DNA of 64,000 nucleotides from a virus. A model generated the notes under the pieces. The model ran no database searches. It was not told the origin of the DNA and saw nothing but the letters and a program-made list of their open reading frames with translations. The stretch spans positions 1 to 64,000 of IMG/VR virus record IMGVR_UViG_3300047585_000208; one strand, 5' to 3'. Below are positions 2,973 through 50,571 of this stretch, one piece after another; the first letter of the stretch is position 1, and each line of letters begins with the position of its first letter. The translations under genes and the position numbers were made by a program.

Positions 2973-3173
2973 ATGAATACGATACTAGAGCAGTACACTG
3001 CGATTGCATCAGTCAACACGCCAATCGGTCGCGAGCAATTTGTCAAAGATATTGTGTCGTGGATTGAAATAGAGTGGGAAAGCCGAGATGGTCGAGAAGT
3101 CCTCACAGATAGTCGGGCGACCAAGTCACTTAAACAAGCATTACACAGGTGGGTAGAAGAAGCGGCGCTTTAG
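2973..3173 (+). CDS. hypothetical protein (3' half duplicated at about 3526-3640)
   Basis: GGAG RBS. Confidence 0.65.
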   Translation: MNTILEQYTAIASVNTPIGREQFVKDIVSWIEIEWESRDGREVLTDSRATKSLKQALHRWVEEAAL

Positions 3174-3287
3174 CCGCTCCTACTGTAACCTGTCCTCGGC
3201 AGAGGCGTTATATCTGCCTTACATACAGTCTGGCTAGTGGGGTCTTTGCACCCCTGAAACTGTTTTGTAGATGCATGGAGCAAAGCG

Positions 3288-3533
3288 ATGAAGATTCTGT
3301 TGGTGCACAATGTGGGCGCTGGTTTGACCGAGAACATCGACGTTGCTGATAACTGCAATATCAAGTCGGTTATCGAATCTCGGCCTGAGCTAAATGGTTT
3401 TAACTTGTCCCGCGTCAGGATAGTCGTTCGTCGGTTGACGAATGGCCAGATTGCTTCCATTTCGGACGTGAATGGCTTCACGCCGCTGCATGAGGGTGAT
3501 CGTCTCACCTTGAATCCTGCGAGACTGGATTGA
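3288..3533 (+). CDS. ubiquitin-like (beta-grasp) protein, copy 1, lacking C-terminal Gly
   Basis: Clear paralog of 3804..4064; ends NPARLD-stop at the duplication junction. Confidence 0.75.
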   Translation: MKILLVHNVGAGLTENIDVADNCNIKSVIESRPELNGFNLSRVRIVVRRLTNGQIASISDVNGFTPLHEGDRLTLNPARLD

Positions 3534-3803
3534 GCTTGAGTGGGAAAGCCGAGACGGACAAGCCATTCCTACAGATAGTCTAGCGACCAAGTCACTTAAA
3601 CAAGCATTACACAGGTGGGTAGAAGAAGCGGCACTGTAATCGCTCCTACTTGCCTATATTGAGCCATGCTCTCTCGTTCGAAGCTGTAACTTGTCCTCGG
3701 CAGAGGCGTTATATCTGCCTTACATACAGTCCGATTAGCGGAGCCGCTAATCGTGGGGTCTTTGCACCCCTGAAACTGTTTTGTAGATGCATGGAGCAAA
3801 GCG

Positions 3804-4064
3804 ATGAAGATTCTGTTGGTGCACAATGTGGGCGCGGGCGTGACTGAGAATATCAATGTCACTGATAGCAGCACTATCAAGTCCGTTATTGAATCTCGGC
3901 CGGAATTGAACGGGTTTAACCTGACCCACTTCAAGATGACTGTTCGCCGGCTGGTGAATGGCCAAATCACTCCGATCCCGGATGTGAACGGCTATACAAA
4001 CCTGCGCGAAGGCGACCGTCTCACCTTGAATCCCGCGAAACTCGAAGGCGCCTTCGCCGCCTAA
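3804..4064 (+). CDS. ubiquitin-like (ThiS/MoaD/Ub beta-grasp) modifier
   Basis: L(R)EGDRLTL C-terminal strand motif; KLEG followed by an AFAA tail; lies upstream of E2, JAB and E1 genes. Confidence 0.8.
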   Translation: MKILLVHNVGAGVTENINVTDSSTIKSVIESRPELNGFNLTHFKMTVRRLVNGQITPIPDVNGYTNLREGDRLTLNPAKLEGAFAA

Positions 4065-4158
4065 TCGGGTGAACCCTAATTGAAAACGACCGCCTCGGCG
4101 TAGGCTTTTATACGCCGTGTCTTTATTGCCCCCTAATTGAGCACAAGGGAGCGCTATT

Positions 4159-5634
4159 TTGTCTGACTTGCGTAGTATATTCCGCGCTGCCAAACGAATT
4201 CAGGAATCGCTACTTAAAACAAAATTTAGGCTGGCCTTTTCTGAGCTTAACATTCGAGTAGCTGACGCGACTCGGGGACTTCATGTAACAAAGTCAATTT
4301 TGGCTGGTAACGTGAAAAAGCAGCGCTTCGAAAAGTACACTGTAAAAAGGCTAACAAATTATCTCGACACTCTTTTAAACGCTATTGCTACGACTCGAAC
4401 AGTGTTATCGCAAGAGGGGCTTAAGAATGCCGAGATTCCGACGCTACGATTTATCGTTGAAGAGCTGCTTCACTCCGCATACGAGTTTAAAGGCCTGAAT
4501 GTCCATCTGGGTAACCGCCCAGGACAAACACCGACTTTGAGGCCGTACGTCAGCATAGTTACAGAACCGATTGTGCTTGAAAAAGTTCCACTTGGTCGAT
4601 TCGAGCTTCAGATTTTCACTGATACGTTAACGCAACATAACTTTACAGAAAACGTTGAAAGGTCCATTCACGCGGTTGCGCTTGACGCAAATCTGTCTTA
4701 TAAGCGCCAGTTTCCTCATCCGCACATTGATACTAGCGGCAACATATGCACGGGGGAGGGTAAAGCGCTTATTGCGCGATCGCTGCGAGAGGGTCGATTT
4801 TCAGACGCCTTTCAGCTATTGCACAGCGTTTTAAACTCTTACAACGCAAGAAGCGCCTATCAGACTATTGAGACCTGGCAGGGGGTCCGAAAAACTTGTG
4901 TGGCCTGCGGTCAAACTGAGTACGAAGAGGAAATGGTGCTGTGCCCAAGGTGCCGAACCATTCGATACTGTGCTAACTGCGTGTCTATTTGTAAAGGTTG
5001 CAGGTGTTCAACTTGTCCACAATGCTTTGTTGCATGTCGAAACTGTACAGAACCGTCATGTCTTAATTGCCGACGAAATTGTAACAGTTGCGCCCTAAGC
5101 GGGTGTGCAACATGTGTCTTTACGTGCGATCGCTGCCTCAGAGGAACTTGTAAAACGTGTCAATCGATTATTACAAACACGTGTGGGCACAATGTTTGCT
5201 CTGCTTGTGCAATAGTTTGTCTTAGTTGTAACACGATGTATTGCGCAAGCTGTAGCAAGTTTAAAATCAGCAACTGTGTAACTTGCCTGAAGCCTTGTTG
5301 TACTAAATGCGGCACAAGAAGGCCTGGGTCAAGTAACCGTACGCATACAGTTTGTCCTACTTTGATAACGCCAGTTTTACCAAGGCCCGCGCCACAACTA
5401 CAAGAGGTAGTTTTTTTTAATGCGGAGAACTTTGGTCTAGTACCGATTACAACTCCAGAACCGATAACAGAGTTACAAGCAGTTTTAGGAACTCCGATAC
5501 CTGCTAGGCTTATTGAGACCGCAGCCGAAGACTTTGATGATGAAGACGACGAAAACGACGATGATGACGAAGTTGAAAATGACGAAGACTTTGACGATGA
5601 AGATGATGAGGAGGATGACGATGAGATCGGCTAA
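4159..5634 (+). CDS. prokaryotic E2 (UBC-fold) protein with CxxC array and acidic tail
   Basis: HPHIDTSGNICTG active-site-like motif; about 16 CxxC; poly-D/E C-terminus. Confidence 0.75.
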   Translation: MSDLRSIFRAAKRIQESLLKTKFRLAFSELNIRVADATRGLHVTKSILAGNVKKQRFEKYTVKRLTNYLDTLLNAIATTRTVLSQEGLKNAEIPTLRFIVEELLHSAYEFKGLNVHLGNRPGQTPTLRPYVSIVTEPIVLEKVPLGRFELQIFTDTLTQHNFTENVERSIHAVALDANLSYKRQFPHPHIDTSGNICTGEGKALIARSLREGRFSDAFQLLHSVLNSYNARSAYQTIETWQGVRKTCVACGQTEYEEEMVLCPRCRTIRYCANCVSICKGCRCSTCPQCFVACRNCTEPSCLNCRRNCNSCALSGCATCVFTCDRCLRGTCKTCQSIITNTCGHNVCSACAIVCLSCNTMYCASCSKFKISNCVTCLKPCCTKCGTRRPGSSNRTHTVCPTLITPVLPRPAPQLQEVVFFNAENFGLVPITTPEPITELQAVLGTPIPARLIETAAEDFDDEDDENDDDDEVENDEDFDDEDDEEDDDEIG

Positions 5635-5676
5635 TAACCTTAAGTTGAGTAATACATTACTCAAAAGGAAGGAATT

Positions 5677-6651
5677 ATGACAGATCCAAATGTTTTACAA
5701 GCAGCTGTTGAGCTTTTTCTTGGCAAAACGCTTGGGCCAGCAGATTTAGTAGTTAACTCGCTCATCGAATTCGAGAAGGATTATGCGCGAGCAATCAAGG
5801 CATCAAAGGCCTACCGCAGGCTTTTAGCTACCCCGGGAAAAATTGGACCGTTTGAAAAGGTTAAACGCGTTTTATCGCGGTCTGTGTTTTGTCGACAAAA
5901 TTATTCGGTGCCTTATAGGAATATCATCGCCGTTAAGCATTCGGATACGACTGCTTTGACCGCTGAGGCACTTTTAGCCGAGATGGTACAGATTTCAATT
6001 GAGTTTGCCAATTTCGGTGTTAAAAACTCGTCGTCGCGTAAGTACATCTTTGCGGACACTCCTCCAATTACCCTTAAAGGTGTTGAACTCGGCTCGTTTC
6101 AGCTTCGAATTTCTAAGGGTCGGTGTTTAAGCGCACATGCTATTACGCCGAATAAAGCTGTATACGGGAACGAACTAATCCGTAATCTCACACATCCACA
6201 CGTATGTGACAATAAGGTCTGTTTAGGCGAAGCCCAAAGCTTAGTGCACAGAGCTCTAAACGATTTAAGGTTGGCAGACGTCTTTCAGCTCGCACACTCT
6301 GTGCTTACGACTTATTCCGCGGTGTCGGCTTATCGAAAGCTAGATCACTGGACGACGGCTATTAGGCACTGTTTTAATTGCGGAAGTACCCACTATAACT
6401 CGACAGAAAAACAGTGTACTGATTGTCTACGGTTTCCTTGTTTACAGTGCATTACGGATATTAAGGGCTGTATTGAGTGTCGGCGCATAACTTGTTTTAC
6501 CTGCGGTGGTTGGCAAACGTGCTCAGTTTGTCAATGTAGAATTTGTTTAACTTGCAGTAAATCATTCACACCGACAAAAATTTGTCAAAATTGTCTTCAA
6601 AAGCCTCCAACTAAACCCAGAAGGAGAAAAGCTGCTGTGCCGGTAGCATAA
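5677..6651 (+). CDS. prokaryotic E2 paralog 2 with CxxC array
   Basis: LGSFQL...HPHVCDNKVCLG...LTTYS..SAY..L..W; 8 CxxC. Confidence 0.75.
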   Translation: MTDPNVLQAAVELFLGKTLGPADLVVNSLIEFEKDYARAIKASKAYRRLLATPGKIGPFEKVKRVLSRSVFCRQNYSVPYRNIIAVKHSDTTALTAEALLAEMVQISIEFANFGVKNSSSRKYIFADTPPITLKGVELGSFQLRISKGRCLSAHAITPNKAVYGNELIRNLTHPHVCDNKVCLGEAQSLVHRALNDLRLADVFQLAHSVLTTYSAVSAYRKLDHWTTAIRHCFNCGSTHYNSTEKQCTDCLRFPCLQCITDIKGCIECRRITCFTCGGWQTCSVCQCRICLTCSKSFTPTKICQNCLQKPPTKPRRRKAAVPVA

Positions 6652-6687
6652 CAAGGCTTATGCCTTTCTTTCGTAAAGGAATAACTC

Positions 6688-7650
6688 ATGATCACAGCTG
6701 ATGGAATTTACCTTCAGGCTGCCGGCTGGTTTAAAGCGCCCGTCGCTGACATTATTTGTGATTTTCAGCAGTTATCCCAATCCTTTGATGACTTTGAAAT
6801 AAACCTTGTCGATAAGACCATCAGTGTGGTAACCAAGTTTATTGAGATGGAAAAGATTAGGCTTGGCCGATTTCGCCTAACAATGAGGACAGCCGATATA
6901 CAGCTAGGTATCCAAGTTGTGACATCGTTGTTTAGCGTTAAGGCCTTAGACCCAAATCCACCCAGCCGCGATAAGCTTATTTTTCATCCAAACATCAATT
7001 TTCAAGGAAATGTTTGTCTTGGCTATAATGCCCAAGCAGTACTTAGTAAAATAATGGCCGATTTTCGCATTGCTGACGCTTTTGAATTGATTAATACGAT
7101 TATGCACAGCTCCAGCGCTGGGCACGGCTACGTTAAATTACAAAACTGGGTAACTCAACCCGTAGTTTGCGCTGATTGTGCTTTTAAAGAAGAACAAGCG
7201 CAGGCGCAGCGCTGCACCGGTTGTCCAACTTACTTTTGCAAACGATGCATTAATAAATGCGCTTGCGGCGGCGTTACGTGCCAGAAGTGCGTTAAGCCTT
7301 GTAAGAACTGTGGCATTAACCATTGTCAAGTTTGTCCGAAAAGTTGTGAAGGCTGCAAGAAGAAATTTTGTCCGTCTTGCACGAAAACTTGCAAAAGCTG
7401 CCCAGCCGACACTTGCGAGAATTGCCAGCTTGTTTGTGCAGTTTGCGAAGTTTTTGGTTGTAAAGCTTGTACCGTTGCGACAGAGTTGTCAAAACGGCAC
7501 TGCCACGACACTTGTACAACACAGTGTGTACGTTGTGGTCAGATTTACGCAGATGATGAATCGCCCAGCAATGTTTGTGTATCGTGTCTTGAAGAAGAGG
7601 CCATACGCGATGAGCCAAGTATTGAAGTTCAGTCCGCTAGCATGGCATAA
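6688..7650 (+). CDS. prokaryotic E2 paralog 3 with CxxC array
   Basis: FHPNINFQGNVCLG matches the canonical UBC HPN-x7-C pattern; about 14 CxxC. Confidence 0.8.
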   Translation: MITADGIYLQAAGWFKAPVADIICDFQQLSQSFDDFEINLVDKTISVVTKFIEMEKIRLGRFRLTMRTADIQLGIQVVTSLFSVKALDPNPPSRDKLIFHPNINFQGNVCLGYNAQAVLSKIMADFRIADAFELINTIMHSSSAGHGYVKLQNWVTQPVVCADCAFKEEQAQAQRCTGCPTYFCKRCINKCACGGVTCQKCVKPCKNCGINHCQVCPKSCEGCKKKFCPSCTKTCKSCPADTCENCQLVCAVCEVFGCKACTVATELSKRHCHDTCTTQCVRCGQIYADDESPSNVCVSCLEEEAIRDEPSIEVQSASMA

Positions 7651-10600
7651 ATTGCAATACATGTGCCATCTCGGTGATACCGAGGTGGGCGGATTCGGTA
7701 TTTCAAAACCAGTGAAGTTGACCCACGGAACTGTCGTTCCTGAGAATTATTTCTACATCGAGGATTTTAAACTCGTTAAACAGCGCTCGACTTATGCCTT
7801 TGTTAAATTCACGGACGAAGGTATTGACGAGCACATGACTTACTGTGTGGACAATGAGATCGACCTTCAGCGCGGCATGAGAATCTGGATTCACACTCAT
7901 CCAGGCCAATCTGCACAGCCATCCTTCACTGATGAAAACACCTTTAAAGACCAAGACAGCCTAGGTCAGTGCGACTGGGCTGTGATGTTCATTTTGTCTC
8001 GAACTAACGAAACTTATGCTCGTTTACGTTTTTCAGCCGGTCCTGGCGGTCAGATTATGCTTCCTGTTGAAATTGATTGGTCCACAGTAAAAGAGAGCAT
8101 TAGGACATTTGCAAATAATATTGATGCGTACGACGCTGAATATGCTCGCTGCGTTGAGAAATCTTCCTACAGCACGGGATATGCACCGTATGGGGGAGGT
8201 GTGTCTTCGGACAAAAATTTTCCCCGTCACGCGTGGGAAAGAAATCACGCAAGCGAAAGCGGCGTCGGCACAAGCACCGTGCACGGTAAGTTTGATGACC
8301 ATGGACTCGCCTATGAAAACCGCCTCGTTAGGCATCCGAGCTCGCTTAATCGCTTGCCTCAGCAAAGTCAAGAGCCTGTTATTGCTACGCCAGCGCCCAA
8401 TACCATAAGGCTTTATCTCATTTACAACCAGATGACCAAGCAATACGGGTTTTACAAGAAAGAAGAAATTAAGAACGCGGCCATCCTCGTAAGATCACAG
8501 GGGATGAAGTTGCTTAATCGCGGAAGTTGGGACTTTCCCGATAACATCGAAGAGCGATTGGCAAAAGAAGGTAAAAAGCTTCCAAAGTTCAATTTTGAAG
8601 AAGAAGCAGAAGCTATTACTTGGGCGTCGACTAACGGAGAAAAAGTCGATCCGCACCAGCACGCTAAAACTTGCCCGTGCGAGAAGTGCTGGGAGTCGTT
8701 TAAACCAGGTAATTCAGTCAGAAAGCAGCAACTTCACCTTGTCATGCTAAAGTTAGCTAGGCGCTATGAGTTCAGAGACGCTACACAGATGATTGAACTC
8801 GATAATAGCGATCTCAGCTATGACGATTTTGGTACTTGGGAATTTGACGAAATTATCAAGACATTCCCGACTTGGGATATCCAAGATGGCAGTGGAGCTT
8901 ATTTCAGGGCAACTGATTGGGCTAATAAACACGGACGAAAGGTATTAACTACTCAAACGGTTAAGGCAATTGAGTCATCAAAGGGCTGGTTAGAGGCTGA
9001 TCGGTATTATCTGACCTGGATTCCGACTGTCAGTCAGTTTCAATTCTTGTCGTATGACCAGCTTTGTGAGACTTGGCACCATGTGGTCGAAGATGAAACT
9101 TCTTGGCCAATAGTTAAGAGCAATTGGTACATTAAGCCAGACAGCCTTCCAAATATCCAGAGCTGGCAAGCCGCTGAAGAAGAAGTTGCGCACAGTTGGG
9201 GTCGTGCCCATGGTGAACTGATTGGCAATACCGGTAATTACGATCCGTTTAGAGGCGGTTACGAAGCAGCCAAAACGGCTAAAGAAACTCTGACAGTTAA
9301 TACGGACATGCGTCGGCTTTTTCTGACTTACGATCCAATTTTCAAAGACTATTGTTTCATTAACGAAACAATTCTTAATACTCGTTGGCAAACTTGTTGC
9401 ACAAAGTCGCTTCATCCGCCAGCCGTGCACAGTAGCTGGGATATTCCGGTTTCGATAAATGAAACTGCTTTGAAGTGGACTAAAGACGAACTCGATGAGG
9501 CTATTGCCTGGGGTCGGCGATTCGGCACTGAGATTACAGAAGTTGGCAATTACGATCCTTGTAAGTTTAGACATACTAACAGCTCTAGCGCCACTATTAC
9601 TAAGCTCTTTCTGACTTATCGTGGCGCATTTGACGATTATGCTTTTCTGACAGACGGCCAGCTTAAGGATTATTGGGTGCGTTGGCAACATATGCCGAAT
9701 CAGCATCCAAAGGTCAACAGTGTTTGGGAAATCAGGGGTAACAGCAGCGTAACGCACGTTTACGGAAAAAGTCAATTGGTAGACGCCAGAATTTGGGCTA
9801 ACACCCACGGCAAATCTTTCTTTATGGACCCGCTTGATCCGTTTGAAGCCACGTACAAAAAGCCAGTTACCGTTGCGACAATCCCAGATTTACCGACAAT
9901 CCGATTTCTAACTTACAGCCCGATACTGCAGGATCACGAGCTTATCACTAATTCCATGCTTGAAGCTCGTTGGCGCAACAACGAAAAGAAACCACATCAT
10001 TATCCAGTTGTTGACAGCGTGTGGGATATGGCCGCGCCAGAGCATCCTAACGTAAACTGGCGGCGCTGGGCTAAAGATAAAATTGAAGATGCTAGAACCT
10101 TTTGTAAGGAAAACGGTAAACAAGTCATTACGGCTTGCGTTGACCCTTACCGCGAGTTTTACGAATTACCAACTAAGCCAAAAGCGAGTTACCCTACACT
10201 CGTAAACCCAATTAGTTACTATTTGACTTGGTTGCCAGTTCGAGTAGAGTTTAAGTTCTTGCTAGCAAACGACCTTATGGCGGCCAGCGGCACAAAGGGT
10301 GTGTATGCCCCGACTGTTATCTCCGTTTGGTTGTTTAGTGAAAGTCGAAAGCTGTCTTTAAGCGTCACTACGTTCTCTAAAGCCGAAACTGCGGAAGACT
10401 GGGCTAATGAAAATGGTGTTTGCATTAAAGCCATTTCAACCGAAGAAGCTTTAATCGAAGCTAAAACAGCGCTAAGTTCTGGAGCGCAAGTCTCTACTGA
10501 AGTTGTTCTAGTAAAACCGGAAATTACTGCGGCTATTGACGAAGCGTTATCTGCCCCCATAACCCCCGCTACTTCGACGACAGCTGGACCCTCGTCAGTC

Positions 10601-11179
10601 GATCTGGGTGGCGATATTCAGTTGTTTTATTTGGCTTGGGTTCCAGCTCAGCAAACTTTCAAATTTCTATCGCCACAAGAAATTATTGACATTTGCACCG
10701 ATTCAGGCCAAAATGACCCGCACATCCGAAGTAGCTGGATCTTTAGCACAGTTTATTACGGAACCCTTTTAGACTACAGCGTCGACGAATATGAATTAGC
10801 CGAGAATTACGGCAAAGAACACGGGGAATTTTATGAATTTTGCACTTTAAAGGAAGCGCTTCCAGAGAGCATCATGATTGTTGAGTCTATTGACAAAGAA
10901 GCAGCTGAAGCGCTTATACTCGCAGGGTTAGACGACACCTTTGCGGAAGAGTACTTAAAAACGCTTGACAAAGCTGAGGCTGAGGAAAAGCCTAAGGTTG
11001 TCGGGCTTTTACCCTATGTCCCAGAAAAGGAACCAGAAAATGCAAACAATGGAAGCATCAACGATGTCGGAATTAAAGGCGAAGTTGCCGCCGGTCATGG
11101 ACTCGACACCGGCTGCGGCTTTGGAGGAGGGTACGGCAGCCCAAACTCCCAATGGGGTCCCGGCTACGAATACGACTAA
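7610..11179 (+). CDS. JAB/MPN+ metallo-isopeptidase with long C-terminal repeat region
   Basis: TEVGGFG (catalytic Glu) and WIHTHPGQSAQPSFTD (HxH-x7-S-xx-D). Likely start ATG 7610. Confidence 0.85.
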   Translation: MSQVLKFSPLAWHKLQYMCHLGDTEVGGFGISKPVKLTHGTVVPENYFYIEDFKLVKQRSTYAFVKFTDEGIDEHMTYCVDNEIDLQRGMRIWIHTHPGQSAQPSFTDENTFKDQDSLGQCDWAVMFILSRTNETYARLRFSAGPGGQIMLPVEIDWSTVKESIRTFANNIDAYDAEYARCVEKSSYSTGYAPYGGGVSSDKNFPRHAWERNHASESGVGTSTVHGKFDDHGLAYENRLVRHPSSLNRLPQQSQEPVIATPAPNTIRLYLIYNQMTKQYGFYKKEEIKNAAILVRSQGMKLLNRGSWDFPDNIEERLAKEGKKLPKFNFEEEAEAITWASTNGEKVDPHQHAKTCPCEKCWESFKPGNSVRKQQLHLVMLKLARRYEFRDATQMIELDNSDLSYDDFGTWEFDEIIKTFPTWDIQDGSGAYFRATDWANKHGRKVLTTQTVKAIESSKGWLEADRYYLTWIPTVSQFQFLSYDQLCETWHHVVEDETSWPIVKSNWYIKPDSLPNIQSWQAAEEEVAHSWGRAHGELIGNTGNYDPFRGGYEAAKTAKETLTVNTDMRRLFLTYDPIFKDYCFINETILNTRWQTCCTKSLHPPAVHSSWDIPVSINETALKWTKDELDEAIAWGRRFGTEITEVGNYDPCKFRHTNSSSATITKLFLTYRGAFDDYAFLTDGQLKDYWVRWQHMPNQHPKVNSVWEIRGNSSVTHVYGKSQLVDARIWANTHGKSFFMDPLDPFEATYKKPVTVATIPDLPTIRFLTYSPILQDHELITNSMLEARWRNNEKKPHHYPVVDSVWDMAAPEHPNVNWRRWAKDKIEDARTFCKENGKQVITACVDPYREFYELPTKPKASYPTLVNPISYYLTWLPVRVEFKFLLANDLMAASGTKGVYAPTVISVWLFSESRKLSLSVTTFSKAETAEDWANENGVCIKAISTEEALIEAKTALSSGAQVSTEVVLVKPEITAAIDEALSAPITPATSTTAGPSSVDLGGDIQLFYLAWVPAQQTFKFLSPQEIIDICTDSGQNDPHIRSSWIFSTVYYGTLLDYSVDEYELAENYGKEHGEFYEFCTLKEALPESIMIVESIDKEAAEALILAGLDDTFAEEYLKTLDKAEAEEKPKVVGLLPYVPEKEPENANNGSINDVGIKGEVAAGHGLDTGCGFGGGYGSPNSQWGPGYEYD

Positions 11180-11921
11180 GCCAGAACTTACCAGAAATTC
11201 CCGTCAGCGAGACATCATCCCACCCGCCAAGCTCGCTGAGGTACATGCCCTGGTCATCGGTGTTGGCGCAGTCGGTCGGCAGGTGGCTTTAATGCTTGCC
11301 GCTGTCGGTACTCCAGAAGTAAGTATTTACGACGACGACATTGTTGCGATCGAGAATCTCGGTCCTCAAGCTTACTTCCAACAAGATATTAATATCCCGA
11401 AGGTTGTTGCGACCAAAGAGTTGATGAGGTTAGTCAATCCAGACATTACTTGCACAGCAAAGCAAGACCGGTTCAAGCGGTCGACGGAGTTTAAGGTCAA
11501 AGATGGGCGGCAGCTTTGCGTTTTCTGTTGCGTTGACGATATCGAGGTTCGAAAACTCCTTTGGGAGCGCCTCAAGGATCAAATTGATTTCTGGGTCGAT
11601 GGCCGAATGTCCGCAGAGATTTACGAAGTTTTGAGCGTCAATACGCCTCGCGAAGAGAAGGCGCTGGCCAAGATCAAAACCGAGAACTTGTTTACGACTT
11701 TTCGGGAGATCAAGTACAAGCCTTACGAAGATACCTTCTTTGCGAAGAATGAGGCATTCCCGGTTTCCTGTACTGCAAAATCGACTGTATTTACTGCCAA
11801 CATCTGCGCCGGCAACATGATTCAGCCGTGGTCAATGTATCTGCGTGGCGTGTCCACGGAAGATGAACTTGATGCGATCGAGTCGCACAAAGTGCTGATG
11901 AAGGCGGCTAAAGCCGAATAG
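11040..11921 (+). CDS. ThiF/MoeB-family E1-like activating enzyme
   Basis: SRQ, VIGVGAVG, DDDIV..ENL..Q, PKV, CCVDD...R, DGRM and candidate catalytic Cys in SCTAK. AAGGA RBS before ATG 11040. Confidence 0.9.
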   Translation: MQTMEASTMSELKAKLPPVMDSTPAAALEEGTAAQTPNGVPATNTTKPELTRNSRQRDIIPPAKLAEVHALVIGVGAVGRQVALMLAAVGTPEVSIYDDDIVAIENLGPQAYFQQDINIPKVVATKELMRLVNPDITCTAKQDRFKRSTEFKVKDGRQLCVFCCVDDIEVRKLLWERLKDQIDFWVDGRMSAEIYEVLSVNTPREEKALAKIKTENLFTTFREIKYKPYEDTFFAKNEAFPVSCTAKSTVFTANICAGNMIQPWSMYLRGVSTEDELDAIESHKVLMKAAKAE

Positions 11922-11995
11922 AATTGAGATAGGAGCTTGGTCAGAGGCTATATTCTGATCCTGAGTAACGCATTACTCAACTTTAGGCCTAGACT

Positions 11996-12904
11996 ATGAC
12001 GTTACCTTCTGGAACATCTCAAACTTATCTTTGGCCTGGCACAACCAGGGTCGAAGATGTCCCACTGCCGGCAAAGATCAAGGCAGTGGCATGTTCACAA
12101 GGTACAAACCCAAATCTTGGCTGGACTTTCTTAGATCAACAAGGTAAGCCTGTTGATATTTCTGATTTGCTCGCTCAGAGCTATACTTGTCAAGTCCGTA
12201 TGCGAGAAGCTGCCTTTTTGCACACCACCGAACCACCGACCATAATCAACTGCACTGTTATAACCCCAACAGAAGACGCAGCGCCAACAACCTCGATAAC
12301 AGCGCTGCTCCCGACTACTGCAACAGCCTGGAATCAGATCCTTCTGGCTGAATGGGCAGTATTGTCCCCTGCGGGCGTTCCGGCCTTTACGAACCTAGAG
12401 TACGTCTGGGTTGAAGCTGGCCAATACGCCCAACAGGTCAATTTTTACGGAACACCGTCGGTTCAAGACCTCCGGATGATCGTTCGCGATGTGTCTAGAG
12501 ATGGAAATCTCTGGCTCAAGAACTTCGAATACGACCTTAGCGACTTTGCCTGGAGTATTATTAGGTGTGTTCAGGAATTCCAAGAATCGCTTCCGCCGAT
12601 TAACAATTTCTATTCCACCAAGACATTCCCCTTCAGAAATAACCTCATGACCGGGGTAGCGGCTTATCTAATGCAAATTCAAGCTACTTGGTATAGGCGT
12701 GTACATTTGCCTTATCAAGCTGCAGGAATTTCTTTGGATGATAAAGCTAAATTTGCTGAATACACTAATGAGTCGCAAAGACTAATGAGCGATTGGAAAA
12801 AGTGGATGCAGCTTAAAAAAGTTCAGCTCAATGCCGACGGAGCGTATCAAAGCTTTGGCAGCGCATACGGAGAAGGCGCGTATGGCGGCTATGGTGGTTG
12901 GTGA
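11996..12904 (+). CDS. putative head-tail adaptor or neck protein
   Basis: Pattern ..PP...Y....FP.......G......Y.A.GIS.DDK; sits at the start of the virion gene block. Confidence 0.45.
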   Translation: MTLPSGTSQTYLWPGTTRVEDVPLPAKIKAVACSQGTNPNLGWTFLDQQGKPVDISDLLAQSYTCQVRMREAAFLHTTEPPTIINCTVITPTEDAAPTTSITALLPTTATAWNQILLAEWAVLSPAGVPAFTNLEYVWVEAGQYAQQVNFYGTPSVQDLRMIVRDVSRDGNLWLKNFEYDLSDFAWSIIRCVQEFQESLPPINNFYSTKTFPFRNNLMTGVAAYLMQIQATWYRRVHLPYQAAGISLDDKAKFAEYTNESQRLMSDWKKWMQLKKVQLNADGAYQSFGSAYGEGAYGGYGGW

Positions 12905-12928: not shown

Positions 12929-13825
12929 ATGCCAGAACAAATCCATTCAATCGATCCTTATGGGCTTAATCCTTTTACGCGAGTAACGGTAGATTACTCC
13001 TTTCGCAATACAACTCGCATCTACTGGGAGTACCAACCCCTCTTTAACGACATTCCTGTTTACAGTATTCAAGTGCAGGTTGCCGAGGTAGATAATCCTA
13101 ATGCGACCTGGACAAATGTTGGAGCTCCTATAGTCGGAACCAACATCCGCTTTATAACCAACGACGAGCTTGGACTAGAGAGTGGGAAAGAGTTGACATT
13201 GTTCTTTAGAGTCGTTCTTACAGCTGCTCCAGGCCCAGGCCCCGAAAACCGTCCAGGTAACATCTATATCTCTCCTACTGCAGGAGTCTTTGGCAATTTA
13301 CCTCCTTTTACTTGGGGGTTATTTCAAGAGATCGTCAGAAAAGAATATCTGCGCTTTGCTTTACTCGGAGTAGCTAATCAGGGCTATCTTTTACAAGAAA
13401 AGCGCTCTGGACCTCTTTGCCCCCTTTGTATTGACCAGTTAACTGGCGAGTGTATAGATTCGGATTGCCCTTCTTGCTGCGGTACTCGCTTCGAGGGTGG
13501 GTTTTGGCCAGGGATTGAAAACTTCTGGTTTGACAGCGAGCCTTTTGGGCATTTCCCGAATATGGACCAGCAAATGCGCGGCACTATTGATGACGATGAA
13601 GTTACAACTGCTCGTGTTATTGCTAATCCTTATTGCACGGCTCGTGATGTTGTTGTCGATCTAACGTCAGATAGGCGCTTTAGGGTAAGGAAAGTAGAAA
13701 CACTGGCGCAATTTCGGATGGTCCCGATTGTGTCGCGAATAACCCTTAAAGAGGCACCATTTTCCGACGCTATCTATAAATTTCCTGTTCCGGCTATTTG
13801 CCCTAGCCAGTGCGATTTTGAGTAA
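12929..13825 (+). CDS. putative neck/head-closure protein with Zn finger
   Basis: G.LCPLC.D......CPSCCGT.F.GG motif followed by a beta-barrel-like C-terminus. Confidence 0.5.
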   Translation: MPEQIHSIDPYGLNPFTRVTVDYSFRNTTRIYWEYQPLFNDIPVYSIQVQVAEVDNPNATWTNVGAPIVGTNIRFITNDELGLESGKELTLFFRVVLTAAPGPGPENRPGNIYISPTAGVFGNLPPFTWGLFQEIVRKEYLRFALLGVANQGYLLQEKRSGPLCPLCIDQLTGECIDSDCPSCCGTRFEGGFWPGIENFWFDSEPFGHFPNMDQQMRGTIDDDEVTTARVIANPYCTARDVVVDLTSDRRFRVRKVETLAQFRMVPIVSRITLKEAPFSDAIYKFPVPAICPSQCDFE

Positions 13826-13848
13826 TGCATTACTCAAAAGGAGAAGCA

Positions 13849-14073
13849 ATGATATATGCAGGGTTCAAGTATGCTGGTACTAAAGATGGTACTGGTTATG
13901 GTGATATTAGTGGAACCGTAAACGGATCCGCAAGAGAATACTATGGTACAACCCCAGACGACTCAGTTCAATACGGTGGTAACGCTCAAGGGTGGGGTGA
14001 GCGCTCCGGAACCGGGAGTGGCGCTGAAAATTGGATAGTTCGACTTAATGGTCACAACAGACTTCAGAAATAA
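13849..14073 (+). CDS. Gly-rich mini-protein
   Basis: Palindrome plus AAGGAG before ATG 13849. Confidence 0.65.
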   Translation: MIYAGFKYAGTKDGTGYGDISGTVNGSAREYYGTTPDDSVQYGGNAQGWGERSGTGSGAENWIVRLNGHNRLQK

Positions 14074-14105
14074 GCTGAGTAACGCATTACTCAAAAGGAG
14101 CAGGT

Positions 14106-14339
14106 ATGGATATAAAAATAGCTACTGGTAGCGGTAACCCAGATGGAAGTGGGTACAGTTGTTCCGATTGGACAGGGGACGGTAGATCGGCTTACTTCGT
14201 GATGCTGCCTACACGCACAGACGGCTTCGGACAAGGCATTGGGACAGGTGCGGGGAAGTTATATGGGTGCGGGTTCGGAAAAGAGCATTGGGATGTAGTA
14301 AACCTAGGCCACGCCGTGGGGCAAGGTACCGGAGAGTAA
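14106..14339 (+). CDS. Gly-rich mini-protein
   Basis: Palindrome plus AAGGAG RBS. Confidence 0.7.
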   Translation: MDIKIATGSGNPDGSGYSCSDWTGDGRSAYFVMLPTRTDGFGQGIGTGAGKLYGCGFGKEHWDVVNLGHAVGQGTGE

Positions 14340-33796: not shown

Positions 33797-35437
33797 ATGA
33801 CGTTAACTATTACAGACCTGAATACGCTAAACCAACAGCAGGTCGAGCAGATGCGCCAACTGCTCACTCAGCTGCTCTCTGAGTACAACCCTAATGCCGG
33901 GCTTGAGATGGGTCCAACCCAGGACCTTATCGTTACGCCGAAGGCCGTTCTTGACACTGCAACTCAAAACAATATCAATTTAGTCGTTCAATCTAGCAGC
34001 CTTGCGGCAATCGTTGCAAACCCGGCTCTTGGTGATCCAACTACAGTCGCTAACCTTCTTTCGAACTACGGCATTACCCCTACGGCAGCTGCCCCTGCAA
34101 GCGGGAATGTCACTATTCTTTTAAGCACTCTTATTCCTACTGTTATTCCGTCTACTACAGTTTTTACAATTAGTGGTCAGACATTCCAACCAGCGCAAAC
34201 TTATTCTGCAAGAGTGTCTTCTACCCTTGTGCAACTTTCAACTGATGTGCTGATTTCCCAGCTTGGCAACTATTACGCTTTTACTATTCCTGTAACTGCT
34301 GTAACTGCCGGTTCTGCTGGAAACGTTACCCTTGGCTCTCCTGCAACTCTTTCTCAAAATCCTGGTTCTTTTGTAAGCGCTTATGCTTCAACTAGCTTTT
34401 CTGGCGGCACAGACGCCGAATCTAATTCTCAATTAGTTACTCAGCTTCAGTCTGGGCTCGCGGCTAAAGCCTGGGGAAACCGGGTTACAGCCGCAGCCCA
34501 GATAACTCAGCAGTTTCCTTCTGTAACTGAGACGTCGATCATTGGCTTTGGCGATCCAGAGATGCTCAGAGATGAGCATTCAATCTGGCCAGGACATACA
34601 GGTGGTCGAACGGATACTTATATCCAAACAGCGCCAATACAGCAGTACGTAACTGTCACTGAAACCGCTACCCTTATTGCTACAGCTGGTAACGTTGGAA
34701 CTTGGCAGTTTCAAATAGCTCGCGATGATGCTCCTGGCTTCTATGAAGTTACTCAAATATTGACACCGTCAATGCCCTTGACCGCTCAAGGCTTCCTTCC
34801 GGCTAGCGATGTTAGAGGATTTGATCTTTCAATAGACTCAACCCATACTTACATTCCAGACATTATTTCTCCGCTGGAAGCAGCTTATACCGAATTCCAA
34901 ACTTCAACGATTACCTTCATCGATACAGTCACGAGCGTTTCAGGGTTAACTGTCGGAGTGGCAACTGCTCCTTACCAAGTTGTAATGAGTCTAATGCCCC
35001 AGATTGACACGATTCAGGCTTTTCTTGGGCTGAGGACAAACCGACCTCCGATGGGTGATGTTCTAGTCAGAGGTGCTGTTCCGTGCTTTACTGGAGTTTC
35101 TCTGACGCTGAATGTAATATCAGCTTCAACGCTCACAGTCGCAGCAGTTCAGGCAGCGCTTGCGTCAGCTGTGAATAGCCAGGGGTTTGTAGGAAGCCTA
35201 GCTGCCTCCTTTATCAATCAAGTCTTGCATAACCTGGCCGGAACTAGCCTGGTATCGGTAAGCGGTCTTTCGATGACTGGTAGGATTAGGCGACCCGATG
35301 GGGTTAATGTCTTTGTCAATAGCTCAACAGTCCTGAGCGTTCCGAGTTCACCGCAGGTTATGTCAACGGCCAATACTGTGTTATTCTTACTAAGTCCAAG
35401 TAACGTGGCAGTGAACCTAGTCACGGTATCAAGTTAG
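33797..35437 (+). CDS. baseplate J-like wedge protein
   Basis: A.G.VT....T.IP..T.F ... V.A..AGSAGNV ... FSGGTDAESN..L. Confidence 0.8.
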   Translation: MTLTITDLNTLNQQQVEQMRQLLTQLLSEYNPNAGLEMGPTQDLIVTPKAVLDTATQNNINLVVQSSSLAAIVANPALGDPTTVANLLSNYGITPTAAAPASGNVTILLSTLIPTVIPSTTVFTISGQTFQPAQTYSARVSSTLVQLSTDVLISQLGNYYAFTIPVTAVTAGSAGNVTLGSPATLSQNPGSFVSAYASTSFSGGTDAESNSQLVTQLQSGLAAKAWGNRVTAAAQITQQFPSVTETSIIGFGDPEMLRDEHSIWPGHTGGRTDTYIQTAPIQQYVTVTETATLIATAGNVGTWQFQIARDDAPGFYEVTQILTPSMPLTAQGFLPASDVRGFDLSIDSTHTYIPDIISPLEAAYTEFQTSTITFIDTVTSVSGLTVGVATAPYQVVMSLMPQIDTIQAFLGLRTNRPPMGDVLVRGAVPCFTGVSLTLNVISASTLTVAAVQAALASAVNSQGFVGSLAASFINQVLHNLAGTSLVSVSGLSMTGRIRRPDGVNVFVNSSTVLSVPSSPQVMSTANTVLFLLSPSNVAVNLVTVSS

Positions 35438-49443: not shown

Positions 49444-50571
49444 ATGCTAGAGGTTCAAAAGTATCTAAAGTCAGGGAAAACGCTTCAAGATCTTTCAGCT
49501 GAACTTGGGATAATCGCATCAGCCCACGACACTCTTCCGCTCGTCATTCTCAATTACGGCCAAATTGATAGCCCCAAAACTAATCCAATCGCGAGAGAGT
49601 GCCGTGGGCTTGTTCTGAATAGCCAGACCTTTGATCTTGTTGCCCGGTCTTTTCCGCGATTCTTCAATTGGGGCGAAGTAGCTGACGAAATGCCCCTTTT
49701 CAATTTCAACACCTTTAATGCCTTTGAAAAAGTCGACGGAAGCTTGGTCATCTTATATAACTTCGAAGGTAAGTGGATGGCTAACACCCGCGGCAGCTTT
49801 GGCACAGGTGCAATTGATCGATTTAGCAACCGAACTTGGCATGATGGGTTTTGTGCAGCGATGGGTGTTGACAATTTAGAAGTTTTAGCTAAAGTTGGAC
49901 TTGATCCAAAGCTTACTTATGTCTGTGAATTCTGCTCTCCATGGAATAAGATTGTTCGGCGTTACCCCGAACCTTTGATGTACTTGTTATCTAGATTTGA
50001 GGGTGAAACTGAAATCCAGTGGAACGAGAACGCTTACCGAGATATCTGTACTACAGGTTTATTTGAAAAGGTTAAGCACTGGCATTTTAGTAACGTTGAT
50101 CAAATTCTTGTCTTTCTAGAAAAGAACAGCACAGACGACCCAACTTTCGAAGGTGTCGTAATTCGCGATGACAACAACCGGCGTTGGAAGATCAAAAGCA
50201 AAACGTACCTAGGTCTCCACGCAATTAAAGGTGCTGAAGGCAATCTGTTTAACCCTAAACATCTATTGCCTTTCGTCTTGTCTGGTAACGGCGCTGAGCT
50301 CTTGACCTACTTTGAAGAAGCCACTGACGCGTTTAATGAGTTAAAGAAAAGCGTTGACCGAGAGTTTGAACAATTAACCCAGGTCTGGCACGATTACAAA
50401 GATGTCGCGGACCAAAAAACCTTCGCACTTGCGATCAATGGGAAAACGCGCTTTACATCGATCTTATTTACGATTAAGAAAAAATTCGGTAACGCCCAAA
50501 CACTTGAACACCTTCAACATGCCTGGCGAAACTCAGAAGCGCAGATTTTAAACAACCTCAAACTTGAGTAA
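49444..50571 (+). CDS. RNA ligase 1 (T4 Rnl1-like)
   Basis: ECRGL, F.RFFN, motif I EKVDGSL, FEGVV and KIKS. Confidence 0.9.
   Translation: MLEVQKYLKSGKTLQDLSAELGIIASAHDTLPLVILNYGQIDSPKTNPIARECRGLVLNSQTFDLVARSFPRFFNWGEVADEMPLFNFNTFNAFEKVDGSLVILYNFEGKWMANTRGSFGTGAIDRFSNRTWHDGFCAAMGVDNLEVLAKVGLDPKLTYVCEFCSPWNKIVRRYPEPLMYLLSRFEGETEIQWNENAYRDICTTGLFEKVKHWHFSNVDQILVFLEKNSTDDPTFEGVVIRDDNNRRWKIKSKTYLGLHAIKGAEGNLFNPKHLLPFVLSGNGAELLTYFEEATDAFNELKKSVDREFEQLTQVWHDYKDVADQKTFALAINGKTRFTSILFTIKKKFGNAQTLEHLQHAWRNSEAQILNNLKLE

Follow-up and report, generated by a model that had tools for sequence, protein, structure and literature searches.

We analyzed a 64,000-nucleotide stretch of viral DNA (hereafter the window), i.e., the first 64 kb of the linear, 137,890-base IMG/VR virus record IMGVR_UViG_3300047585_000208, whose completeness is estimated at 67%. 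Positions 3288–11921 hold what we read as a ubiquitin-like protein (Ubl) conjugation cassette. Every long open reading frame (ORF) in this interval lies on the + strand, and the layout comprises two β-grasp proteins, three paralogous proteins with an HP[HN]-x6-7-C motif and CxxC-rich tails, a JAB/MPN+ protease and a minimal ThiF-type E1. The seven co-oriented genes listed by an initial annotation of this DNA were all found in place. We propose, with a probability of about 0.72, that they form a genuine, phage-native Ubl conjugation cassette from a large family without a name in the model libraries, which resides in large phages and in integrated elements of Planctomycetota and which has been expanded here. 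Characterised bacterial Ubl conjugation systems, e.g., Bil and CBASS Cap2/Cap3, are host defences against phages. In the present case the same kind of chemistry would be carried by the phage itself. The kind of system is known; what appears to be new is its phage-borne, expanded variant, and the family appears to be uncatalogued. The proteins and domains of the cassette are as follows.

3288–3533, + strand: Ubl1, an 81-residue β-grasp paralog ending ...ARLD (family profile match 2.4e-19).
3804–4064, + strand: Ubl2, an 86-residue ubiquitin-like precursor ending KLEGA-FAA (β-grasp model, family Gly-Ala motif).
4159–5634, + strand: E2a, 491 residues, with an N-terminal helical part, a core with HPH-x7-C, 16 CxxC pairs, a linker and a C-terminal Asp/Glu-rich tail (core profile 9.0e-37).
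5677–6651, + strand: E2b, 324 residues, with a helical hairpin, a core with HPH-x6-C and 8 CxxC pairs, the typical family architecture (AlphaFold2, Foldseek).
6688–7650, + strand: E2c, 320 residues, without the N-terminal hairpin, with a core containing IFHPNINFQGNVCLG (HPN-x7-C) and 14 CxxC pairs (Pfam UQ_con, E 0.14).
7610–8140, + strand: JAB/MPN+ metalloprotease domain (Pfam Prok-JAB 0.0034, PADLOC JAB 0.0016).
8402–10939, + strand: eight tandem repeats of an orphan domain of about 100 residues in the JAB protein (consensus ..LYLTY.P....Y.FL....L...W...P.V.S.W.F...A..WA..HG).
11040–11921, + strand: minimal E1, a ThiF-type adenylation domain (candidate start at ATG 11040, frame open from 10965, conserved core from about 11193).

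By its repeats and base composition, the cassette belongs to the phage genome proper. An 18-bp palindrome, TGAGTAA-N4-TTACTCA, has 28 matches in the window compared with 0.28 expected, and these lie mostly at gene junctions. Copies were found at 842, at 2459 upstream of the cassette, at 5646, at 11962 and at 24 further sites; two of them lie within or at the end of the cassette.

5646–5663, no strand: palindrome copy between E2a and E2b.
11962–11979, no strand: palindrome copy directly behind the E1 stop codon, where the cassette ends.

The G+C content of the cassette is 0.463, compared with 0.482 for the remaining window and a median of 0.583 for bacterial cassettes (n = 80). Also, same-strand genes run on past both cassette borders. 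The initial annotation had considered that host DNA might have been joined to the phage contig by mis-assembly, and in this sense it could be argued that the closest relatives lie in Planctomycetota genomes and that the cassette sits near one contig end. However, copies of the phage-wide palindrome are found within the cassette as well as to its left and right, and the G+C content fits the window and not the bacterial cassettes; mis-assembly is therefore very unlikely. Moreover, complete phage genomes bear the same cassette.

We then followed the family through sequence collections. An exhaustive profile search with the three E2 cores returned 1707 cluster representatives when a limit of E ≤ 1e-3 was applied; with E ≤ 1e-10 there were 895. 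Most of these E2-like proteins have about 350 residues, with the core at about residues 95–232, and all eight members whose names we looked up are termed 'hypothetical protein'. No model of Pfam, NCBIfam, PHROG or PADLOC names the Ubl or the E2 of the family. A word-indexed homologue search with E2b returned only E2b itself, and a scan of viral contigs with the three-E2 alignment produced 36 pattern matches, none of which was confirmed. For comparison of loci we used a bacterial set, i.e., 80 loci kept from 111 relatives among 131 genome_contigs pattern matches, and a viral set of 25 IMG/VR contigs of 18–181 kb obtained from a scan with the E1 alignment.

In both sets, as in the window, we found Ubl, E2, JAB and E1 following one another in this order on a single strand, with tight spacing or overlaps. 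Among the 80 bacterial loci, tblastn with the window proteins detected Ubl2 in 65, the E2s in 80, JAB in 75 and E1 in 68. The complete one-strand order was found by iterative searches in 53 of them, most others being cut by contig ends. Planctomycete-lineage titles were carried by 76 of the 80 loci; the remaining four are titled as uncultured bacterium, Thiobacillus, Hydrogenedentota and Bdellovibrionaceae metagenome-assembled genomes (MAGs). The statement in the initial annotation that a simpler version with a single E2 occurs in planctomycetes was hence borne out. Two of its carriers, Allorhodopirellula solitaria CA85 and Rhodopirellula sp. SWK7, are in culture, and the family is therefore open to experiment. 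The IMG/VR search for syntenic viral clusters, which had been suggested at the outset, was equally productive: E2, JAB and E1 occur together in 25/25 viral loci and the Ubl in 24/25. Each of the five viral records that we checked has a completeness rating of 100%, and direct terminal repeats are present in four. Several complete carrier phage genomes measure 165–181 kb.

In line with the claim that the phage has expanded the machinery, three tandem E2s, a truncated extra Ubl and a JAB protein of this size with repeats were found in none of the 105 other loci examined. The nearest cases of E2 multiplicity were one bacterial locus with two E2 genes a few kilobases apart and one with a fragmented E2. 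Whole cassettes can be present in several copies per genome; a Gemmatales contig, for instance, has three loci and a single MAG has four. In five viral loci (L087, L088, L095, L096 and L102, two of them identical) two cassettes stand in tandem. The first consists of E2, JAB and E1, and its highly divergent E1s group in a separate, long-branched clade; the second consists of Ubl, E2, JAB and E1, with an enlarged E2 (666–798 residues) and JAB (466–654 residues, according to ORF calls).

The further suggestion that the phage had acquired the machinery from its host is not supported by our comparisons. The cassette occurs in 25 IMG/VR contigs, and in a tree of 87 E1 rows the viral sequences are more diverse and basal under midpoint rooting, with bacterial rows largely following taxonomy. 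The E1 of the window sits on a long, unresolved branch of this tree. Bacterial loci of the Pirellulaceae type also carry a DUF1257 protein and a large serine recombinase; the recombinase beside the bacterial copies fits integrated mobile elements. Judged from these sequence comparisons, phages and integrated elements may be the main home of the cassette.

Ubl2 is probably the conjugated tag. Its AlphaFold2 model, calculated from a 63-row alignment, reached a predicted local distance difference test (pLDDT) value of 89.6 and has the element order β-β-α-β-β-β. Nearly all rows listed by Foldseek for this model were β-grasp proteins at probabilities of 0.91–1.00, including RnfH, ubiquitin, MoaD, TtuB, Caldiarchaeum ubiquitin (2mqj, 6fj7), SUMO, NEDD8 and SAMP1; the best E-value was 2.1e-3, i.e., no row reached E ≤ 1e-3. 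When the family profile was compared with the PDB, the natural matches were MoaD (E 0.067) and ThiS (E 0.55). The top three matches in that comparison were designed helical repeat proteins, which we took as spurious. Tags of the family measure about 72–86 residues, and all 68 trimmed bacterial homologues carry the motif [KR][IVL][EDAQ]-G-A followed by a variable tail of 0–13 residues. Six of 74 ORFs were left out of this count for their length, among them a natural head-to-tail di-Ubl fusion in a planctomycete cassette (L008:2287-2772). Each domain of this polyubiquitin-like precursor ends in KIEGA, which argues for cleavage at or after Gly-Ala.

A family profile search of the 138-kb record found exactly two Ubl genes, and the Gly-Ala motif is present in the window on Ubl2 only. 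The KLEG|AFAA end given by the initial annotation thus applies to Ubl2; Ubl1 ends in ARLD and has neither the family Gly-Ala end nor a C-terminal Gly. The two proteins share 74% identity. They stem from a tandem duplication of about 500 nt (3060–3529 and 3526–4045) that copied a leader and the first 80 codons. Its junction falls on codon 81 of Ubl1, where the E-G-A end is replaced by D-stop, homology with Ubl2 breaks and the next repeat unit begins. Over the 80 codons we counted 32.5 synonymous and 23.5 non-synonymous differences, i.e., about 1.0 synonymous substitution per site (dS). Because the ratio of non-synonymous to synonymous rates (dN/dS) is 0.143 at this dS, the codon comparison indicates that Ubl1 is kept under purifying selection and is not decaying. 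Having lost the Gly-Ala end, Ubl1 would not be activatable. Most likely it binds the same enzymes as a regulator or competitor that cannot itself be conjugated.

The three E2-like proteins are only 25–30% identical in pairwise comparisons, and a core profile search found exactly three such genes in the 138-kb record. In a 101-row tree they fall on one side of a branch with a support of 92 in the Shimodaira–Hasegawa-like approximate likelihood ratio test (SH-aLRT), a branch that was not starred and came with a long-branch warning. Because of this common branch, the trio fits an old triplication within this phage lineage. The family core pattern, H-P-x...C-x-G followed by at least 8 CxxC pairs, was found in all three, the bacterial members having a median of 10 CxxC pairs and a range of 8–11. 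His, Pro, Cys and Gly are invariant in 78/78 aligned cores and in 100/100 full-length family members. With its HPN form E2c stands alone among 103 motif-bearing family E2s, the remaining 102 having HPH. At the terminus of E2a (5500–5634) about 40 residues are Asp or Glu. Some eukaryotic E2s have acidic tails, which this terminus recalls.

The initial annotation had assigned the ubiquitin-conjugating (UBC) fold to these proteins. Their motifs were found as described and agree with the superfamily pattern, in which an HPN-type motif precedes the catalytic Cys by 7–8 residues; the fold has moderate support, and we consider it probable. In the AlphaFold2 model of E2b (pLDDT 83), a helix, a β-meander, the HPH loop, the Cys and two helices follow one another in the order of UBC elements. 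Fold searches were carried out with this full-length model. E2/UEV entries made up 32 of the 46 rows listed by Foldseek (counted by hand), with Rad6 (2yb6, probability 0.75, template modelling (TM) score 0.41 on the target) and Ube2w (TM score 0.45, target-normalised) as best rows. A profile of the three window cores matched 21 PDB sequences, all of them eukaryotic E2s and all at the active-site motif, at E 0.21–2. The UQ_con match of E2c is likewise located at this motif. An Atlas feature search with the E2c core gave viral clusters partly with Prok-E2_D at a score of 0.83, which we treat as a lead only.

Sequence comparisons suggest that the CxxC tail is a zinc-finger array, possibly with an E3-like role. 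A family profile of the first ~55 tail positions weakly matched cross-braced zinc fingers in the PDB, namely the MID1 B-box (0.0012), a CesA RING-type finger (0.0063), TFIIH p44 (0.0095) and the TRIM21 RING (0.012). In the E2b model the tail has a pLDDT of about 79–90.

The JAB gene spans 7610–11179 on the + strand and encodes 1189 residues. Its frame is open from 7178, but similarity to other JAB proteins sets in only at the ATG at 7610 (MSQVLKF...), which is therefore the likely start. The protease motif E...HxH-x7-S-xx-D, predicted from the sequence at the outset, was confirmed: Glu25, His95, His97, Ser105 and Asp108 are invariant in 9/9 aligned members. The domain itself accounts for about 160 of the 1189 residues, and both its Prok-JAB and its PADLOC JAB scores are under the curated thresholds. 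Compared with the PDB, the JAB profile had 26 matches at E 0.0036–0.94; Rpn11 came first, followed by the Caldiarchaeum Rpn11-like protein 6fjv (E 0.0073), PSMD14, AMSH, CSN5 and one entry titled only 'Peptidase'. The protein shares 43–58% identity with JAB proteins of planctomycete cassettes, the tblastn match to these loci reaching 2.6e-50 at 53% identity.

The eight repeats that fill most of the remaining JAB protein have four invariant positions. A hidden Markov model of the repeat matched no other protein among all ORFs of the fetched loci and only these eight sites in the 138-kb record. Searches gave two chance-level matches in the PDB and no usable match in the Atlas. A complex prediction of one repeat with Ubl2 scored 0.00, a 'no answer' that weighs neither way. 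Their probable function is to anchor or scaffold the protease on a partner that is itself repetitive or multimeric.

The assignment of the E1 is well supported, as are those of JAB and Ubl. The E1 matches Pfam ThiF at 3.5e-20 (72.6 bits, cutoff 28.1), and its tblastn match to planctomycete loci is 7.1e-56 at 42% identity. A four-sequence E1 profile found 74 PDB sequences at E ≤ 1e-3, with E. coli ThiF first (1.3e-14), then UBA6, UBA7, UBA1, UBA5 and MoeB. The window E1 consists of the adenylation domain alone, lengths in the family being about 215–260 residues. GxGxxG is present in 87/87 family E1s, and the cysteine of a C[TG]xx motif, already noted as a candidate catalytic residue in the initial annotation, is kept in 86/87, about 58 residues past the CVD Asp in most. 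Because of this spacing, we infer that it is the candidate catalytic crossover-loop cysteine, equivalent to that of ThiF, which we take to be Cys184.

A closeness to ThiF and a minimal size, together with MoaD and ThiS as natural matches of the Ubl profile, would also be expected from a sulfur-carrier pair of the ThiS/MoaD type that stands beside unrelated neighbours and performs no conjugation. This is very unlikely. The order with the HP[HN] cysteine protein and JAB is fixed in 53/80 bacterial and 25/25 viral loci, the gene for the tag encodes a precursor that ends in a variable tail, and the cassette contains no sulfurtransferase, rhodanese or cofactor-synthesis gene. We rejected the sulfur-carrier pair on these grounds.

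Several results weigh against the proposal of a conjugation cassette. For the E2-like proteins, no Foldseek row of E2b reached E ≤ 1e-3, and both VIA-align lists, obtained with the full E2b model, were filled by the N-terminal helical hairpin and are uninformative on the core. Pfam UQ_con was matched at E ≤ 0.01 by 0/100 family members. The family-wide core profile of 78 sequences found no E2 in the PDB, so that the sequence link to eukaryotic E2s comes mainly from the E2c motif. The UBC assignment is hence statistically insecure; we call the fold probable because the gene context and the invariant His, Pro, Cys and Gly carry much weight. The zinc-finger matches are weak, and cysteine content may inflate their scores. 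As for the tag, its mature end would be Gly or Gly-Ala. Since all 68 homologues carry Gly-Ala, five end exactly there and none in Gly, the mature end may be Gly-Ala instead of Gly, and the cut in Ubl2 may follow Gly-Ala. Every candidate E1 start before the conserved core falls inside the JAB gene, whose stop is at 11179. Finally, an AAA ATPase and a DUF3150 protein that accompany many cassettes (see below) were not found in the 138-kb record, which is about 67% complete.

Regarding the E1 start, the candidate ATG at 11040 has AAAGGAA upstream. The overlap with JAB is at least 59 nt, compared with a few bases in most other loci according to ORF calls, and both frames are open across 215 nt (10965–11179). 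A long translational overlap is the simple reading; a JAB-E1 frameshift fusion product across 10965–11179 is conceivable.

The following scheme draws on the protein families and on established E1, E2 and JAB systems, as described in PMC1779556 and for Bil. The Rpn11-like JAB domain would trim the FAA tail from Ubl2, exposing a Gly-Ala or possibly a Gly end. The minimal E1 would adenylate this end and load the tag onto its crossover-loop cysteine, from where it would pass to the E2-like cysteine 6–7 residues past HP[HN]. The E2 would attach the tag to a target, the fused CxxC array serving as a substrate-choosing or E3-like module, and the JAB domain could also remove the tag again. Since neither the tails nor the N-termini are alike among the three old E2 paralogs, three target specificities would follow, served by one E1 and one tag. 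Ubl1 would act as a non-conjugatable binder of the same enzymes.

A more far-reaching version, which we regard as speculative and rather unlikely, is a multi-specificity mini-ubiquitin system. Here three E2–E3-like fusions would tag three sets of host or rival-phage proteins during infection, Ubl1 would be a retained brake or a decoy against the system of the host or a competitor, and the deubiquitinase would be tethered by its eight repeats. If true, E2–E3 fusion, paralog-based substrate choice and a non-conjugatable regulatory Ubl, otherwise regarded as eukaryotic elaborations, would have arisen in a virus of bacteria. The cassette can be regarded as a natural experiment in expansion, with three E2-like enzymes that have different zinc-finger tails, a conserved non-activatable tag and an eight-repeat protease. 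Finding its targets would show what Planctomycetota phages use protein tagging for, and could also tell whether the fusion of an E2 with a zinc-finger array acts as an E2–E3 in one piece.

Among known systems, Bil (BilABCD, types I and II; the type 6d operon of PMC1779556) has in common with the cassette separate genes for a β-grasp tag, an E2-like cysteine protein, a JAB protein and a ThiF-type E1. An E1-to-E2 relay that processes and conjugates the tag is presumably common to both. In the type 6d E2, according to the same article, the classical His is missing and replaced by a downstream His, whereas the His at the classical position of HP[HN] is invariant in the present family. Unlike in Bil, the E2 continues into a long CxxC array, the tag has a Gly-Ala motif followed by a tail, and the E1 comprises only about 225 residues; moreover, we saw neither a JAB-N domain nor a helical fifth protein in the cassette. 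PADLOC on the window proteins gave no match for Ubl1, Ubl2, E2a and E2b and only an unrelated weak Csm3 match for E2c, and its matches in the cassette were limited to generic JAB and the adenylation part of E1-E2. PADLOC 2.0 presumably includes ISG15-like models. Membership in Bil was ruled out on the tested features, i.e., the classical His, the CxxC fusion, the minimal E1, the Gly-Ala tail and the lack of a Bil-type PADLOC match.

The cassette could nevertheless be a Bil-like weapon between mobile elements, borne by the phage or a prophage, that tags structural proteins of competing phages and so causes superinfection exclusion instead of acting in the phage's own programme. A bacterial system of Ubl, E1, E2 and deubiquitinase is reported to conjugate its Ubl to the central tail fibre of a phage (10.1101/2023.09.04.556158). 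Bacterial copies of the cassette adjoin a serine recombinase, as is the case for integrated elements that often bear defence genes, and several copies can occur per genome. On the other side, the Bil and ISG15-like models of PADLOC match neither Ubl nor E2 proteins, and the cassette resides in complete 165–181-kb phage genomes with terminal repeats. We consider such a weapon possible but, on balance, unlikely.

Type II CBASS resembles the cassette in the adenylation domain of the E1 (PADLOC E1-E2 3.2e-10, NCBIfam 6A-MBL cap2_3 1.3e-08) and, through a weak match of JAB (E 0.098), in Cap3. We rejected this assignment: E2 and E1 are separate here with the JAB gene between them, there is a dedicated β-grasp tag and no CD-NTase was matched in the cassette. 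PRTRC systems (TIGR03736 ThiF, Prok-E2_D) share carriage on mobile elements and ThiF-like and E2-like proteins. They were rejected as well, as the E1 scored 35 bits against the TIGR03736 cutoff of 144.75 and neither ParB nor any other PRTRC protein was matched.

The operon of Caldiarchaeum subterraneum is eukaryote-like and encodes ubiquitin, E1, E2, a small RING protein and Rpn11 (PMC4197634). An Rpn11-like JAB, an E2 with a His-Pro-x motif and a zinc-finger element that possibly acts as E3 are common to both. In contrast to the separate small RING there, the zinc fingers are here fused to the E2 (8–16 CxxC pairs); the present E1 is a bare adenylation domain, and the tag resembles ThiS/MoaD in its sequence and has a Gly-Ala end with an added tail. 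Citing Burroughs et al. 2011, this review (PMC4197634) also places related bacterial operons in Actinobacteria, Planctomycetes and Acidobacteria. Our literature searches found no description of the cassette family or of a phage-borne Ubl-E2-JAB-E1 set belonging to it; because of the mention of Planctomycetes in the review, earlier coverage in Burroughs et al. 2011 is possible.

The neighbours of the cassette suggest two further possible functions. A CDC48/PAN-like AAA ATPase (Pfam AAA 3.6e-32, NCBIfam CDC48 1.1e-23) accompanies it in 37 loci, 27 bacterial and 10 viral, and a DUF3150 protein likewise in 37, 29 bacterial and 8 viral; examples of this association are L056:6441-8925 and L085:13527-16115. 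Tagged proteins might hence be passed to an AAA+ unfoldase for host takeover or regulated turnover, in a miniature pathway resembling ubiquitin and proteasome, and the closest relative of the JAB domain, Rpn11, is the deubiquitinase of the proteasome lid. However, both neighbour genes are missing from the present record, as stated above, and a neighbourhood alone is no proof of a functional link. We regard this function as improbable.

Alternatively, the phage might tag or cross-link its own structural proteins in virion building or maturation. The cassette belongs to one + strand gene run with probable tail or baseplate genes, the window containing a Baseplate_J match at 33797–35437, to which one of the checked complete viral records has a homologue of 26% identity. 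In phages of the lambda and T1 type, a Ubl (TAPI) and a JAB protein (TAPK, JAB plus NlpC/P60) are used in tail assembly (PMC1779556). Phage-encoded Ubl with a JAB protease is thus common to both, whereas TAPI/TAPK systems are without E1 and E2 and differ in protein families and gene context. Also, the Gly/Tyr-rich tail of JAB resembles, by eye, the end of the product of the next gene, 11996–12904. Against virion building, the neighbours differ in other viral contigs, the flanks that we examined around integrated bacterial copies contain no recognisable virion genes, and the genes immediately downstream in the window match no named family. The statement that the cassette lies directly upstream of virion genes therefore holds only in so far as the single Baseplate_J match follows at a distance. 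A role in virion building seems unlikely to us.

The JAB C-terminus (11090–11179) is a Gly/Tyr/Trp-rich tail, ..GFGGGYGSPNSQWGPGYEYD, and the similar end of the following gene's product (12850–12904) reads ..GSAYGEGAYGGYGGW. Gly-rich micro-proteins at 13825–14339 resemble the JAB tail by eye as well. The Gly-rich tail may be a shared targeting or assembly motif.

Non-coding elements accompany the two Ubl genes.

3060–3287, + strand: leader copy 1, non-coding and rich in hairpins; a ribosome-binding site, GGAG, precedes the ATG by 8 nt (direct repeats D2/D3/D1).
3526–3803, + strand: leader copy 2, upstream of Ubl2 (direct repeats and pairwise DNA alignment).
4096–4117, + strand: terminator-like hairpin between Ubl2 and E2a, a possible attenuator (number of such sites not above chance).

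Pairwise DNA alignment showed the leader copies to be 86–100% identical, the last ~55 nt before the ATG being fully identical. Because this identity persists while the adjacent synonymous sites are saturated (dS about 1), the leaders would be either constrained, as a regulatory RNA or promoter, or homogenised by gene conversion. An Rfam search of both leaders gave nothing meaningful. Promoter and terminator scans of the region yielded site counts at chance level, with 11 terminator-like sites compared with 10.5 expected. That the hairpin at 4096–4117 attenuates transcription, giving more tag than enzymes, is hence a lead only.

For the surrounding genes we scanned 30 window proteins against PHROGs and obtained almost no named functions. 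The E1 matched three PHROGs of unknown function, and phrog_2806, also of unknown function, was matched as well. Just upstream of the cassette, a 109-residue coiled-coil-like protein (2580–2909) weakly matched the Hdf-like antirestriction family phrog_1620 (7.8e-4) and one unnamed family. The sole strong match with a named function, to phrog_562 ('RNA ligase and tail fiber protein attachment catalyst', 6.4e-45), came from a 375-residue protein (49444–50571).

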